NCBI GenBank assembly: GCA_041483195.1
Contig: JBGPFC010000021.1
Coordinates: forward strand, 1-64,000
Reading direction: 5' to 3'
From: Candidatus Eiseniibacteriota bacterium
Lineage (GTDB): Bacteria > Eisenbacteria > RBG-16-71-46
DNA length: 64,000 nt
Shown here: positions 1 to 6,000 of the stretch, piece by piece
Layout: the number at the start of each line of letters is the position of its first letter
Position numbering within the stretch: the first letter of the stretch is position 1
Program-made: the position numbers

Positions 1-3000
1 ACGTTCGTCACTTCTCCTCGCAGTGCGGCTTCCAACAAGCCCAGCCGTCGGGCTTCTCGCAGTGACATCGGTATGGGGTCCATGCCTCGGACCTAATCAC
101 AGCGGAGTTAACCCGGACATTTTCACTGCGGAACTACACGCTTCGGGTGCGCCGTTGACCCACCTCCAGATCCCTGATAGCGTGCGGCCCGCGCGGCAAG
201 TACCGATGCCGCAAGCACCTCAACCGAACCACTGGAGTCGGCCCACAGATTGGGACGCGAAGCGCTCGGAATGGTCGAGACCCGCGGCTGGGTGGGAGCG
301 GTCGAGGCCGCCGACGCCATGTGCAAGACGGCTCTCGTGCGCCTCGTCCGATGCGAGGTGACGAGCGATGCGCTGGTCACCGTGGCCGTGCGGGGTGACG
401 TCGGATCGGTGGAAGCGGCGGTCGAGGCCGGGGCGCGTGCTGCATCGCGTGTCGGAGAGTTGCTCGCCCGCCACGTGATCCCGGCGCCGCACGCTCAGCT
501 GGAAGATCCGATCGCGGGACCCGCACCCGGGTCGCCCCGCGTGATTTGAACTCGACGGGAAGGAGTCGTTCATGAACGAAGAAGCTCTGGGTCTCATCGA
601 GACGCGTGGCTGGGTGGCGATGGTCGAGGCGTCGGACGCGATGGTGAAGGCGGCCCGCGTCGAGCTGGTTCATTACGAGAAGATCGGCGGCGGTTACGTC
701 ACCACCGTGGTGCGCGGCGATGTGGCCGCGGTGCGGGCCGCGACCGAAGCCGGCGCGGCAGCTGCCGCGAAGGTCGGCGAGGTGGTCTCGGTCCACGTCA
801 TTCCGCGCCCGCATCCGATGCTCGAAGAGGTGCTGCCCATCCGGCGGCCCGAGGCCGCGGGCAAGAAGTAGGGCGGCGTGATCCTCGCGCAGGTCCTGGG
901 CACGGTGGTTTCCACCCGCAAGGACGCGGCACTGCTGTCCCTCAAGCTGCTGCTGGTTCGCGAGGTGGACGCCCAGTTCAAGCCCACCGGGAACTACGTG
1001 GTCGCCGCCGACGCGGTCGGGGCGGGGGCCGATGAGATCGTACTCGTCGCGCAGGGCTCCTCGGCCCGCATGACCGAGGTCTCCCGCGACCGCCCGGTGG
1101 ACGCCGTGATCTGCGGCATCGTGGACGCGGTCGAGATGGACGGCCGCGACGTGTATCTCAAGCGCGCGGCCCACGGCGGCGCCCCCCGCGGGCGAACCGC
1201 GTGAACGCCGCGGCCGCGCACTGAGCCCCCATGGCGATTGACGAGAAACGCATCGCGAGCATCGTCAGCGACGTGCTGCAACGGCTCGAGCGCGGCCGCC
1301 CCGCCGTTTCTTCCGGAGCGGCGGCTCCCATGGGCGTGCATCCCGACCTCGATACCGCGGTGGCCGCGGCACGCCGCGGCTTCGCGGCGTACGAACGGGT
1401 GCCGCTCGCGACCCGGTATCGCGTGGTCGCGGCCGTGCGCGAGACGCTGATCGCGAATCTTCGCGTGCTGTCCGAGGTCGCGGTCGAGGAGACCGGACTC
1501 GGGCGGGTCGATGACAAGATGCTCAAGAACCGCCTGGTCGCCGAGAAGACTCCCGGACCCGAGGACCTCGAGCCGCTGACCTGGACCGGCGATCACGGAC
1601 TCACACTGCTGGAGCGCGCGCCCTACGGCGTCATCGCCGTCATCACGCCGGTCACGAATCCGAGCGAGACCATCATCAACAACGGCCTCTCGATGATCGC
1701 GGGCGGAAACACCTGCGTGTTCTGTCCGCATCCGAACGCCCGCCGGGTGTCGAACCTCACGATCGATCTCATGAACCGGGCCGCGCGGGGCGCGGGGGCC
1801 CCGGAGCCCCTTCTCCACTCGGTCGATCATCCCACCCTCGAGGTCGCGCAGGCGCTGCTGCGCTACAAGGGGATCCGGCTCAACGTCGTGACCGGGGGCC
1901 CGGCCGTGGTGCGCGAGGCGCTGAACGCCGGGAAGAAGGCGATCACCGCCGGCCCCGGCAATCCGCCTTCGGTGGTGGACGAGACCGCCGACCTCGAGAA
2001 GGCCGCGCGCGACCTGGTCGCTGGCGCCTCGCTCGACAACAACATCATCTGCACCGACGAAAAGGAAGTCATCGCCGTCGCGATGATCGCCGACCGCCTC
2101 AAGGAGGCGTTCGCACGTTCGGGCGCGGTGGTGTTGCAGGCCCACCAGATCGAGAAGCTGCGGGGCATGCTGCTCGAGAAGGAGGCGGGACCGCGCAAGC
2201 ACGCCGTCATCAACCGCAAGTACGTCGGCAAGGACGCGGATATCATCCTGAAGGACGCGGGGATACCCTGTGATCCCACCAAACGCCTGGCCGTTTGCGA
2301 CGTGGACAACGACCATCCGTTCCTGTGGACCGAGATGATGATGCCGGTGCTGGCGATGACGCGGCTGCGCACCGTCGACGACGCGATCGACTTCGCGATC
2401 GAGGTCGAGCATGGTTACCGGCACACGGCGTCCATGCACTCGCGCAACATCGAGAAGCTGTCGAGAATGGCACGAGCCTGCGATTGCTCGATCTTCGTGA
2501 AGAACGGCCCGAATTACGCGGGGCTCGGACAGGGGGGCGAGGGGCCGACCAGCTTCACCATCGCCAGCCCGACCGGAGAGGGCATGACCACCGCGCGCAG
2601 CTTCACGCGCATCCGCCGCTGCACGCTCGTCGACCACTTCCGGATCGTGTGATGCTCGTCGCGATCGGCGCGGTCGAGACCAGCAGCATCGCGCAGGGCA
2701 CGGTCGTCGGCGACGCGATGGTCAAGACCGCCGACGTGGATCTGGTCGAGGCCTGTCCGATCTCCCCCGGCAAGTACTGGGTGCTGATCGGGGGAGAGGT
2801 CGGCCCGGTCCACGCGGCGTTTCGTCGCGGGCTCGAGGTTGCGGCCGACACGCTGCTCGATTCGCTGTTCATTCCCCAGCTGCACGCGATGGTGCTGCCG
2901 GCGTTGCGGGGCACCGTTGCGCCGGCCGATCACGACGCGCTGGGCGTGATCGAGACCGTGACGGCCGCCGCCGCGATCGTGGCCGCCGATCACGCGGCCA

Positions 3001-6000
3001 AGGCCGCCGACGTCCTGCTGCGCGATCTGCGGCTGGCCAACGGCCTGGGCGGCAAGGGTGTCGTGTTCCTGTCCGGGGCCGTGAGCGACGTGCAGGCCGC
3101 CGTGGAGGCGGGACGCGACCAGGCGCAACGCCGCGGGCTGCTGGCGCGGGCGGTGGTCGTGCCCCAGCTGCACCTGCTCATGAAGGGCAAGGTGTTCTAG
3201 TGCGCTTCGCGCGCGTGATCGGCACCGTGGTGTGCACCGAGAAGGTGCGCTCGTGGAAGGGGCACCGGCTCCTCCTGCTGGAGCCCACCGACGCGCGCAG
3301 CCGGCCCTCCGGTCGCTCGTTCGTCGCGGTGGATCTGGTCTCGGCCGCCCCCGGCCAGCGCGTGTTCTACGTGAAGGGACGCGAGGCGGCGAACGCCCTG
3401 CCCGAAGCTGACAATCCCGCCGACGCAGCGATCGTGGGCATCGTAGACGAGGTGCGCGAGCGGCCATGGGCCGGCCCTCCGTCCGGCGGCGGGACGCCCT
3501 GATGTTCACGGGCCGGGTGGTGGGTGAGGTCGTGGCGACCGTCAAGCATGCCGACCTCGCGAGCCAGAAGCTGCTGCTCGTGCAGGCGGTGGATCCCGAG
3601 GGACGCCCGATCGGGAGCCCGGCGATCGCGGTCGACACGGTGGACTCGGGGCCGGGCGACTGGGTGCTCGTCGCCGACGAAGGCAACGCCGCGGCGCAGG
3701 TGCTGCGCCGTGCGCGCGGCGCGATTCGCACCGTGATCGTCGGCGTGGTGGACGCTGTGCACGTACCCCGGTCGTCTTAGGGCGTGCCCGGGCGAGCGCC
3801 GCATGCTAGATTCCGTGCCGATCGAAGGAAGGTGATCCCCCGTGCCACTCTTCGAGTATCAATGCGTGCCGTGCCGTGAGCGTTTCGAGATTCTGGCTTC
3901 CAGGGCGGACGAAGCTGCGCCTCCCTGTCCCCGCTGCGGCGGGGCCGAGGTGAGACGCCTGCTCTCCACCTTCGCGGTGACGAAGGGGCAGCCGAAGCCG
4001 GGATCCGGAGCGTGCGGCTCGGCGGATTGCGCGTGTCGAAGCTCGTAAGCCCCGAGGAGGATGGACTGGAGGACCGGAGATGACGAAGGCCGACCTGGTG
4101 GAAGCGATCGCGAACGAGACAGGAGTCTCGAAAGCTCACACCGGACTCATCGTGGACAGTCTGCTCGACGCCGTGAGCCGCGCGCTCAGCGAGGGGAAGC
4201 ACCTCGAGATTCGTGGGTTCGGCACCTTCAAGGTGCGCGAGCGTCGCGCGAGACGCGCACGCAACCCGCGAAGCGGATCGGAAGTGATGGTGCCGGCGAA
4301 GCTGGTGCCGGTGTTCAAGCCGAGCAAGGAACTCAAGGCGCAGGTGGTGGGAGAGGTGGAGGCCCCGGAGCCCGTCGCGAGCTAGGTCTCACGCGAAACG
4401 GTCCGCCGGGCCTTAGTACACGATCGGGAGGAGCACGGATGGGTTCCGGAAAGAAGCGGAAGCGCAAGAAGATCGCCACCCACAAACGGAAGAAGCGTCT
4501 TCGGAAGAACCGCCATAAGAAGCGCATCCGCTAGACCGTCACACCGCGGCGCGGAGCCTCCGGCTCCGCGGCTGCTCGGCCGCGCATTTCTCTCCCGCGG
4601 CCGCTGGAGCTTCGACCCCGCACGCCGCTGGCGCGGCGGCGCGCGCGATCTGGTGTGGAAGGGATCGCACGCGCCAGAGGACGGGGACTTCTGCGTCGCC
4701 GAAGTCCCCGATGCGGGGCCGGCGTTCCTGATCGAGGTGCTGGGCGCGGACGACCGTCCCGAATGGGACGATGCGGCCGTCGCGTCCCAGTATCGGCTCC
4801 GGCACCGATTCCCCGCGGCCGCCCTGCGCGAAGCGGAGGCGTGTCACGAGCCGGGCGCCCGCGAGCGGCACGGCCGTCTCGATCTGCGCGACCAGCTGGT
4901 GTTCACGATCGATCCCGAGGACGCGCGCGATCACGACGACGCGCTCTCGGTGCGGGCCGCCGATCACGCGCGCTGGGAGGTGGGCGTGCACATCGCCGAC
5001 GTCTCGCACTACGTCGCGCCGGAATCGGCGCTCGACGGTGAGGCGCGCGCGCGGGGGACGAGCTGCTACCTGCCGGGGGGCGTGGTGCCGATGCTGCCGG
5101 AACGGCTCTCGGGAGATCTGTGCTCGCTGGTCCCGGAGCGCGATCGGCTCGCGCTCTCGGTGTTCGTCGAGCTCGACGGCGCGGGCCGCCTCCACGGGGT
5201 GCGCTACGCCGAGAGCGTGGTCCGCAGCGCGTTTCGGCTGCACTACGGCCAGGTGCAGGACGCGTTCGATGGCCGCGGTGTCCTCCCGCATCCGCTCCGC
5301 GAAGCGCTCGCGGAGCTGCTGACGCTGGCGCGCGCGCTGCGCCGGCGGCGTCTGGCGCATGGCGCGCTCGATCTCGACGTGCCCGAGGTGCGGGCCGTGG
5401 TGGACGCGCGCGGCGTGCCGCTTCGCATCGAGCGCCGGGTCGCGCTCGAGAGCCACGCGCTCATCGAGGAGTTCATGCTGCTCGCGAATCGATGCGTTGG
5501 CGAGGAGGGCGAGCGCCGCCGCTCGGGGCTCCTCTACCGGGTCCACGAGCCGCCGATCGCGAGCAAGATCGCGGAGCTCGACGCGATGCTGCGCGCGCTC
5601 GCGCTGCCCCGGCTCGGGAACACCACGGAACCGGCGAGTGCGCTCCAGGCGCTGCTGCGGGTGCCGCTCGATCCGCCGCACCGCCGGCTCGTGCACCGGC
5701 TGGTGCTGCGGTCGCTGGCGCGCGCGCGCTACCTCGAGCGCGACCTCGGCCACTTCGGCCTCGCGACCCGGGAATACTGCCACTTTACCTCGCCGATCCG
5801 CCGCTATCCCGATTTGCACAACCATCGCCGGGTGCGCGAGTGGATTCGCGGCCGCCGCAGCGCCGCCTGGGATCCGGCGCTGCTCTCCGAGCTCGCCGCG
5901 CAGTGCAGCGCCACCGAGATCGACGCCACCGGAGCGGAGCGCGAAGCGACCCGCGTCAAGACCCTCCGTCATCTCGAGGGGAGACTCGGGGAGCGTGCTT

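Follow-up and report, generated by a model that had tools for sequence, protein, structure and literature searches.

The locus at the start of the window, a stretch of 64,000 nucleotides from contig C21 of a Candidatus Eiseniibacteriota genome, is likely to be the shell-plus-dehydrogenase part of a deoxyribose-degrading metabolosome of the sugar-phosphate-utilising (SPU) type, catalogued as MIC7, with its remaining genes at three other sites: a peptide-tagged DeoC on C16, a peptide-tagged RpiB with a Cys-to-Asp exchange (Asp-RpiB) before adenosine deaminase on C11, and a BMC-Tdp on C7. The locus has the content claimed in the genome-wide survey's note, namely two BMC-H, three BMC-P, one BMC-T and an aldehyde dehydrogenase at 250–3780, and its surroundings are as follows:

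1..141, reverse strand: end of a multi-copy insertion sequence (IS), matching ends of C8, C20 and C65 at 100% identity
155..183, forward strand: putative sigma-70-like promoter (TTGACC, 17 bases, TAGCGT), conserved in an alignment of 31 family loci
250..549, forward strand: BMC-H, divergent ("specialised") hexamer (PF00936), corresponding to BMC-H number two in the catalogue's account of MIC7
572..871, forward strand: BMC-H, standard hexamer (PF00936)
878..1204, forward strand: BMC-P 1 (PF03319)
1231..2652, forward strand: microcompartment-type aldehyde dehydrogenase (PF00171; NF011927/PRK15398, 624 bits, cut-off 403)
2652..3200, forward strand: BMC-Ts, PduT-like tandem shell protein of 182 residues (two PF00936 domains)
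3200..3502, forward strand: BMC-P 2 (PF03319)
3502..3780, forward strand: BMC-P 3 (PF03319)
3842..4385, forward strand: genes for an FmdB-type Zn ribbon and for HU, both housekeeping

The dehydrogenase, presumably CoA-acylating, has an encapsulation-peptide-like helix at residues about 5–20, and the best NCBIfam match of the BMC-Ts is the PduT model, under its cut-off. A cluster look-up for three window proteins returned no named members. The Zn ribbon and HU genes, after which an RNB gene follows, mark the ancestral shell site and are retained where the shell genes have been lost. We did not recover the survey's figure of 80 of 101 order genomes with a shell pair beside HU in that form; what we counted was the dehydrogenase, present in 87 of 101 other order genomes and, in family f2, standing apart from the shell genes.

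The same note had typed the locus as Haliangium (HO), an assignment that does not hold: a supplement of the 2021 catalogue places an Eisenbacteria locus of this gene order in MIC7, a type of 6 loci from Ca. Eisenbacteria / Latescibacteria with an incomplete core and neither signature enzyme nor substrate named (Sutter et al. 2021, PMC8217296). Besides the host phylum, our locus shares with MIC7 the two BMC-H, the BMC-P triplet, the PduT-like BMC-Ts, the satellite BMC-Tdp, an N-terminally tagged dehydrogenase as the only gene other than shell genes, the gene order and similar protein sizes; the difference is that cargo genes are identified here, whereas the catalogue entry names no signature enzyme. 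An HO-type organelle with a satellite DeoC, as proposed in 2021, would likewise combine a main locus of shell genes and dehydrogenase only (HO type I) with a distant peptide-bearing DeoC, and the best solved-structure matches of our BMC-H and Tdp are Haliangium proteins. The likeness pointed out earlier thus stands (BMC-H about 70% identical to HO-5815, 64/91 positions by hand count; HO-5816 the best PDB match of Tdp) but is not diagnostic of HO, because intact SPU operons give 61–75% for the standard BMC-H (84–100% within the family), and a best structural match to HO is to be expected since solved structures cover few types. HO loci are mostly from Deltaproteobacteria and are kept apart from MIC7 in the catalogue. 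A class II aldolase (PF00596), common though not universal in HO loci (24/30 type I, 5/11 type II, 29/41 overall), gave 0 matches in this genome (G000, 96.8% complete). The dehydrogenase of MIC7 is closest to SPU3 and that of HO to SPU5/SPU7, a comparison that is the catalogue's (PMC8217296, supplementary file 4), the dehydrogenase tree made here having included no HO sequence. We therefore regard an HO organelle as highly improbable. A satellite DeoC and a role in nucleic-acid catabolism had already been suggested in print for HO in 2021; for MIC7 we found no published statement of the satellite-DeoC idea, so that the retyping adds to what is new in the finding.

MIC7 itself has the look of a dispersed SPU microcompartment. 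With SPU organelles, and SPU3 in particular, it has in common a DeoC that is extended at its N-terminus and keeps its triad intact, a tagged Cys-to-Asp RpiB, a tagged dehydrogenase, the BMC-P triplet, Ts and Tdp, the order H-P-AldDH-Ts-P-P and the lack of a phosphotransacylase (PTAC) (Sutter 2021; PMC11585597). It differs in having two BMC-H, including the extra divergent one, where SPU3 has a single BMC-H, in a Tdp of another clade than SPU3's CcmP-like Tdp, and in signature genes that lie outside any shell locus, in housekeeping nucleoside operons. SPU7 provides a precedent for a satellite DeoC. Because there is no shell gene near the C16 DeoC (C16 1–16000) or the C11 RpiB (C11 52000–68000), the organelle would be SPU-like in its working but of no described SPU subtype. 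The catalogue looked no further than 12 ORFs from a shell gene (Sutter et al. 2021, PMC8217296), and shell-free cargo sites for this reason escaped it, which exposes a blind spot of locus-based catalogues for cargo genes housed in ordinary operons away from shell genes. The third remote site consists of one gene:

C7 37810–38445: satellite BMC-Tdp

This Tdp scores better to HO-5816 than to CcmP and shares only 44–55% identity with the Tdp that intact operons encode; with its best solved match to HO-5816, it is therefore no simple fragment of an SPU3 operon.

That the missing signature genes lie elsewhere, as the survey had proposed, was borne out for both enzymes. DeoC is found in a nucleoside operon:

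C16, reverse strand: operon of alr, deoB, cdd, deoC and thymidine/pyrimidine-nucleoside phosphorylase (pdp), all above NCBIfam cut-offs
C16 8404–9570, reverse strand: deoB
C16 6999–7949, reverse strand: deoC with a 95-residue N-terminal extension

No second DeoC was found in the genome. The C16 protein gives a single PF01791 match and carries the triad D183/K246/K275 intact and invariant across 72 aligned sequences. AlphaFold predicts a confident helix at residues 2–23 followed by a low-confidence linker, and across relatives the peptide is conserved beside a linker that varies freely. DeoC groups with the DeoCs of intact SPU operons (SH-aLRT 95). In enzymes and chemistry the operon is an ordinary deo operon (deoB, cdd, deoC, pdp), and a peptide-less DeoC occupies the same cdd-deoC-pdp setting in the shell-less relatives G099, G102, G046, G171 and G175–G177; what differs is the occupant of the deoC slot: genomes with a shell have a peptide-tagged aldolase of the SPU group there, those without a shell a short aldolase. 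Being common to shell-less relatives, the setting alone proves nothing, and we dropped it as independent evidence. The tie to deoxynucleoside breakdown, which had been drawn from gene context, is better supported than before as a function, but it rests on peptide, ancestry and joint loss. The genome also encodes a nucleoside ABC binding protein, phosphorylases and 5'-nucleotidase domains; a search of it for a NupC-type transporter was negative.

The second enzyme is found beside a purine gene of the same strand:

C11 59576–60652, reverse strand: adenosine deaminase
C11 60649–61218, reverse strand: RpiB, extended by 42 residues, its gene overlapping that of the deaminase

This RpiB (PF02502) has an N-terminal peptide, keeps His99 and has Asp at the Cys66 position, and the glyA-linked paralogue on C9, which lacks the extension as claimed, retains the catalytic Cys. 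Every SPU RPI is reported to carry the Cys-to-Asp change (Dwyer et al. 2024, PMC11585597). The sole homologue assayed, from SPU6, binds DERA, and its activity on ribose 5-phosphate was negligible; the authors of that study see no pathway link (PMC11585597). Because it bears the SPU-type Asp and the assayed SPU homologue had negligible activity, the C11 protein is probably not an active isomerase, which speaks against the earlier view that RpiB is cargo with an enzymatic part in nucleoside catabolism. Among the 80 nearest RpiB loci, 66 are Asp-type, of which 32 have shell genes in the locus, 20 DeoC only, 9 the deaminase and 5 none of these, and 14 are Cys-type, none with shell genes, DeoC or deaminase as neighbours. 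The order RpiB-DeoC-Tdp-H-P-AldDH-Ts-P, the 3' part of which is the window's order, recurs in 16 of the 80, and 8 of the 9 nearest loci are from Ca. Eisenbacteria. Within the SPU-type reading, Asp-RpiB might instead be active on a different sugar phosphate, extend the organelle to a purine- or ribonucleoside-derived substrate and hence be co-transcribed with adenosine deaminase, which it adjoins in 78 of 84 motif-bearing order genomes (compared by hand) and from which it lies about 0.75 kb away in two Krumholzibacteriota loci; residues D8, H9, Y43, H99, N103, R133, H134 and R137, which we take to be phosphate-binding, show no variation across 93 aligned Asp-type sequences. The SPU6 findings, the position of the gene beside or fused to deoC elsewhere, and the persistence of the deaminase after RpiB loss make such an activity rather unlikely.

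All 6538 protein termini were scored for encapsulation peptides with a matrix trained on non-Eisenbacteria shell-locus cargo only, which replaced a profile HMM built from dehydrogenase peptides alone that separated the groups poorly. The survey's statement that a loose pattern picks only DeoC and the dehydrogenase holds for DeoC, which ranks 1st; the dehydrogenase ranks 17th and RpiB 20th, both at only about 9 bits, with 15–18 other termini scoring higher. The threshold of 8 bits was our own choice, and the search window was 170 residues for all DeoC rows, as 115 residues missed peptides behind long linkers. Judged from these sequences, DeoC, RpiB and the dehydrogenase would all be encapsulated.

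The microcompartment dehydrogenase is present in 132 of 206 phylum genomes, some in intact operons. The Asp-RpiB motif occurs in 80/83 complete phylum genomes with this dehydrogenase versus 0/38 without, and in 127/143 of all genomes with shell or dehydrogenase evidence versus 1/63 without, while the DeoC peptide scores in 58/72 rows versus 0/20 shell-less rows, the latter including DeoCs nested in the SPU group; since the genomes are related, these counts represent few independent events. In G099, G102, G163 and G164, which nest inside the family, the shell is gone from the HU site and RpiB from the deaminase site on continuous contigs, the deaminase being retained. The genes of two shell-tagged proteins thus disappear together with the shell genes, at unlinked sites; our trees, which are quick and midpoint-rooted, would fit either dispersal or later assembly. 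It could be argued that shell and dehydrogenase serve an aldehyde of another source, the SPU-derived DeoC and RpiB being cytosolic with relic peptides: G003 (94% complete) keeps shell and dehydrogenase with a peptide-less DeoC and no RpiB match, the cargo genes are unlinked and each has its own promoter, and one family (f4) has an Asp-RpiB without peptide. We consider this improbable in view of the conservation of the DeoC peptide next to its variable linker, its absence from every shell-less row, a genome scan that gave no better peptide-bearing enzyme, and searches that found neither class II aldolase nor PTAC. Like that of G003, the DeoC of G062 has no scoring peptide, and both cases speak against the SPU-type reading.

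In the SPU-type reading, cytosolic deaminases and phosphorylases would yield deoxyribose 1-phosphate and DeoB would convert this into deoxyribose 5-phosphate, a route of established chemistry for which the genes are present. Deoxyribose 5-phosphate would then enter the shell, the co-packaged dehydrogenase would turn acetaldehyde into acetyl-CoA, and products and cofactors would pass the shell, probably via the gated Tdp. Asp-RpiB would most likely be a DeoC-binding core scaffold, maybe still binding sugar phosphate, as judged from its SPU6 homologue. Recycling of CoA and NAD+ is unaccounted for, because neither a PduL-type phosphotransacylase nor an Fe alcohol dehydrogenase scored above cut-off in the genome. 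The chemistry itself is known SPU chemistry. As the C16 DeoC is the only one found, routine deoxyribose breakdown would go through the organelle.

We lean slightly towards a broader proposal, that the SPU organelle has become order-wide housekeeping equipment, probably constitutive, with its aldolase having displaced the former occupant of the deoC slot as sole copy, its Asp-RpiB having moved to before adenosine deaminase, its dehydrogenase gene apart from the shell genes in one family (f2) and its unlinked pieces lost together, and that the Asp-RpiB motif is a shell-independent cargo marker. If true, the motif could be used to find the cargo of further orphan microcompartment types, such as those of Acidobacteriota. 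With the SPU-type assignment, a catalogued orphan type that many genomes of a widespread uncultured phylum carry would have a substrate and cargo open to testing. Its natural gains and losses can serve as controls for the SPU model and for the puzzling Asp-type RpiB, and its few shell proteins, which come with targeting peptides of their own, may be of use in engineering.

The start of the locus at a contig edge, a worry of the survey, conceals no cargo genes. The IS, whose end holds the first 27 codons of a reading frame (presumably of a transposase) starting at 83, is the cause of the edge and no part of the organelle. It joins C21 to C24: a 14-bp duplication on C21 also flanks the other IS end on C24, and the first genes there, of an oligopeptide-ABC system, lie directly upstream of the shell locus in relatives. 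We looked for a regulator site common to the upstream regions of the dispersed genes and saw none, only the sigma-70-like pattern, which was defined after the fact and occurs near 62 of 3269 called genes. The IS leaves the putative promoter at 155..183 intact.

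The shell locus of the window comprises seven genes, placed as the genome-wide survey's note had them (two BMC-H, a BMC-P, an aldehyde dehydrogenase (AldDH), a BMC-Ts and two further BMC-P), and the feature is real. On the 3′ side follow an FmdB-type zinc ribbon, then HU and an RNB nuclease; AldDH scores 624 bits against an NF011927 cut-off of 403, and the closest named relatives of the genome are Candidatus Eisenbacteria. The note had assigned the locus to the Haliangium ochraceum (HO) type, the function of which is called enigmatic in the main text of the 2021 microcompartment catalogue and some genomes of which carry, at a distant site, a DeoC bearing a peptide-like extension (PMC8217296). 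The supplement of that catalogue types the Eisenbacteria locus as MIC7, separate from HO, with a tagged AldDH only, closest to SPU3 of the sugar-phosphate-utilising (SPU) types, two BMC-H, a BMC-P triplet, a PduT-like Ts and a satellite Tdp, and its MIC7 entry names no signature enzyme (PMC8217296). Gene order and protein sizes of this entry (104, 99, 101, 182, 100 and 89 residues) agree with the window (99, 99, 108, 182, 100 and 92) and with its family. Identity of about 70% between the window and HO BMC-H is not diagnostic, because BMC-H of intact SPU operons give 61–75% (42 loci); a class II aldolase was not found in the window genome, and the Haliangium-type assignment is given up. Since the catalogue gathered genes at most 12 ORFs from shell genes (PMC8217296), it missed cargo in shell-free operons.

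Judged from sequence, MIC7 quite probably represents a dispersed SPU metabolosome that handles deoxyribose 5-phosphate, SPU chemistry being already known. By established chemistry, nucleosides are converted to deoxyribose 5-phosphate, which is cleaved into glyceraldehyde 3-phosphate plus acetaldehyde. DeoC and its partner cargo would be packaged inside the shell, within which acetyl-CoA would be formed, with RpiB as putative scaffold and presumably constitutive expression from near-consensus promoters; the observations on which we draw are gene content, N-terminal encapsulation peptides, catalytic residues, an Asp substitution, and joint presence and loss.

The note had also pointed out that the shell locus starts at a contig edge. 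Window 1–141 is identical to the ends of three further contigs, contig C24 opens with the second repeat end, and a 14-base duplication stands beside both ends. An insertion sequence is thus positioned just upstream of a conserved promoter (155–183). In relatives, including single-contig genome G139, the oligopeptide-ABC genes found on C24 in the window genome come immediately upstream of the first BMC-H and no recognised gene intervenes, and together with the insertion sequence this argues that no cargo gene is hidden beyond the edge. The element is multi-copy, its terminal motifs are repeated and its target is duplicated over 14 bases, and a related one (about 55% identity) occurs at the ends of other contigs.

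The distant genes are as the note described: deoB, cdd, deoC and thymidine phosphorylase on contig C16, and rpiB overlapping adenosine deaminase on C11. C16 DeoC, the sole PF01791 match in the genome, keeps D183, K246 and K275, and AlphaFold predicts residues 2–23 as a confident helix followed by a low-confidence linker. Peptides were scored with a matrix built from 37 pattern-picked peptide-like helices from non-Eisenbacteria loci containing shell genes, which favours DeoC since 23 of the 37 are DeoC; among 6538 termini of rough gene calls, C16 DeoC ranks first (25.6 bits), AldDH 17th (9.5 bits) and C11 RpiB 20th (9.2 bits). DeoC matches occur in 154 of the 182 genomes searched, a set exclusive of 24 genomes of shell-less family f18, and loci from 91 genomes were examined. 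A peptide of at least 8 bits is present in 58/72 DeoC sequences from genomes not classed shell-less, versus 0/20 from shell-less ones; the 14 below comprise six RpiB–DeoC fusions, two genes cut by contig ends, two borderline cases, a second copy in G042, and the DeoCs of G143 (probably shell-less), G062 and G003. All of the 30 best DeoC loci have pdp after deoC, 28 have cdd before it and 27 show deoB. In shell-less genomes, however, this slot is filled by short DeoCs; the setting is therefore by itself not evidence, and gene context alone does not support the tie to deoxynucleoside breakdown that the note had drawn from it. In a quick tree (93 of 137 sequences) the window genome's DeoC groups with those of intact operons (SH-aLRT 95); short DeoCs of G099, G102, G143, G046 and f18 lie outside this group on long branches, while peptide-less DeoCs of nine other shell-less genomes fall inside it, a placement that fits peptide loss following shell loss. 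At least three cysteines, often CxxC...CxxxC, separate peptide and aldolase core in 66 of 95 tagged DeoCs (L039–L212; e.g., L061:5498–6355, L152:1507–2373) and suggest a metal or Fe-S site; the cluster is lost from the window genome's DeoC, and no mention of it turned up among the main-text passages of Dwyer et al. 2024 (PMC11585597) that treat cysteine or iron-sulfur. The extension ends, at about residues 70–85 of C16 DeoC (L001), in a conserved helix and an AGAxR-like motif similar to the AGATRIG segment in the C-terminal part of the aldolase itself; the strict form of the motif occurs in 91/125 other sequences and 0/20 shell-less ones.

C11 RpiB carries Asp at the position of E. coli catalytic Cys66, a change reported for all SPU RPIs; the one such protein assayed is described as having negligible activity as an isomerase and as forming a complex with the aldolase (Dwyer et al. 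2024, PMC11585597). The 80 nearest RpiB loci divide into 66 Asp-type, mostly alongside shell genes or deoC, and 14 Cys-type, with neither; 16 of the 80, two of them Eisenbacteria, have the full order RpiB-DeoC-Tdp-H-P-AldDH-Ts-P, the 3′ part of which the window carries in the same order. The Asp-form DNA motif matches 128/206 phylum genomes, which are related and give counts that are not independent: 127/143 with shell or AldDH evidence versus 1/63 without (that one 54% complete), and 80/83 versus 0/38 among the 121 complete genomes. As to the three misses, alignment shows Asp in G063, a contig end truncates the gene of G083, and G003 gave no match for RpiB; G003, which keeps a shell with neither tagged DeoC nor RpiB, counts against the SPU reading. 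By hand comparison, of the 84 order genomes with the motif, 78 have the Asp-RpiB gene ahead of adenosine deaminase, the others being three with it beside deoC and three unassigned. Genes for uridine kinase and for a nucleoside ABC binding protein are at most 6 kb away, and one for a phosphorylase at most 14 kb. In 18 Acidobacteriota loci (L051, L053, L059, L064, L065, L070, L073–L076, L078, L081, L084, L085, L088, L094–L096) Asp-RpiB adjoins DeoC, mostly with peptides and with no shell gene in the locus DNA examined, possibly as unrecognised cargo of another microcompartment type. Krumholzibacteriota (L072:5001–7130, L086:5001–7200) likewise have a tagged Asp-RpiB a short distance upstream of a homologue of adenosine deaminase. 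Four shell-less family members (L228, L239, L240, L241) each yielded a single RpiB, in which Gly stands at the position of Cys66 with a Glu close by, whereas the window genome's housekeeping copy is Cys-type.

BMC-Tdp is distant from the window, on C7, in line with the satellite BMC-T of the note, and is unlike the intact-operon form, which counts against the SPU reading. Also against it, no PTAC was found in the window genome, nor any Fe alcohol dehydrogenase over the cut-off, enzymes that would serve cofactor recycling; PTAC-less SPU loci likewise typically carry Tdp (Dwyer et al. 2024, PMC11585597). The promoters of rpiB and Tdp (C11 61257–61218 and C7 37773–37810; L002, L253), conserved in relatives, end 8–10 bases before ATG, which suggests leaderless transcripts.

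Genomes G099, G102, G163 and G164 serve as natural controls: continuous contigs cross the HU site with no shell genes and the deaminase site with no RpiB, DeoC is short in the first two and was not found in the last two. Housekeeping-gene trees of modest support nest them within the family in at least two positions, and the shell occupies this HU site in other families as well, so they have likely lost it. Across the phylum we find intact operons (f13, f14, part of f7), RpiB and DeoC paired or fused at a distance from the shell and often located behind cdd (f3, f4, f5, f9, f16), complete separation (f1, f15) and an AldDH standing alone (f2, peptide scored in 3/4 loci examined), a range of states that implies no direction of change. 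The unpublished genome G073 contributes one row to tallies, alignments and trees; of the three peptide-bearing f2 AldDHs one is its own, and no claim depends on it alone.

A satellite DeoC has been proposed for HO, and one is on record for SPU7 (PMC8217296). Our literature search, confined to papers outside subscription, found none giving MIC7 cargo or substrate, or describing the dispersed arrangement; a paper on Effluviviacota treats a related phylum's compartments without, in the part consulted, this link (PMC11323493), and Eisenbacteria are absent from the main text of an Asgard microcompartment preprint, the SPU-locus table of which is in its supplements, beyond this check (PMC12747264). 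In f15 and f3 (L191, L192, L188) the third BMC-P stands as a satellite at a distance of a few kb from Asp-RpiB; its neighbour in f15 is uridine kinase.
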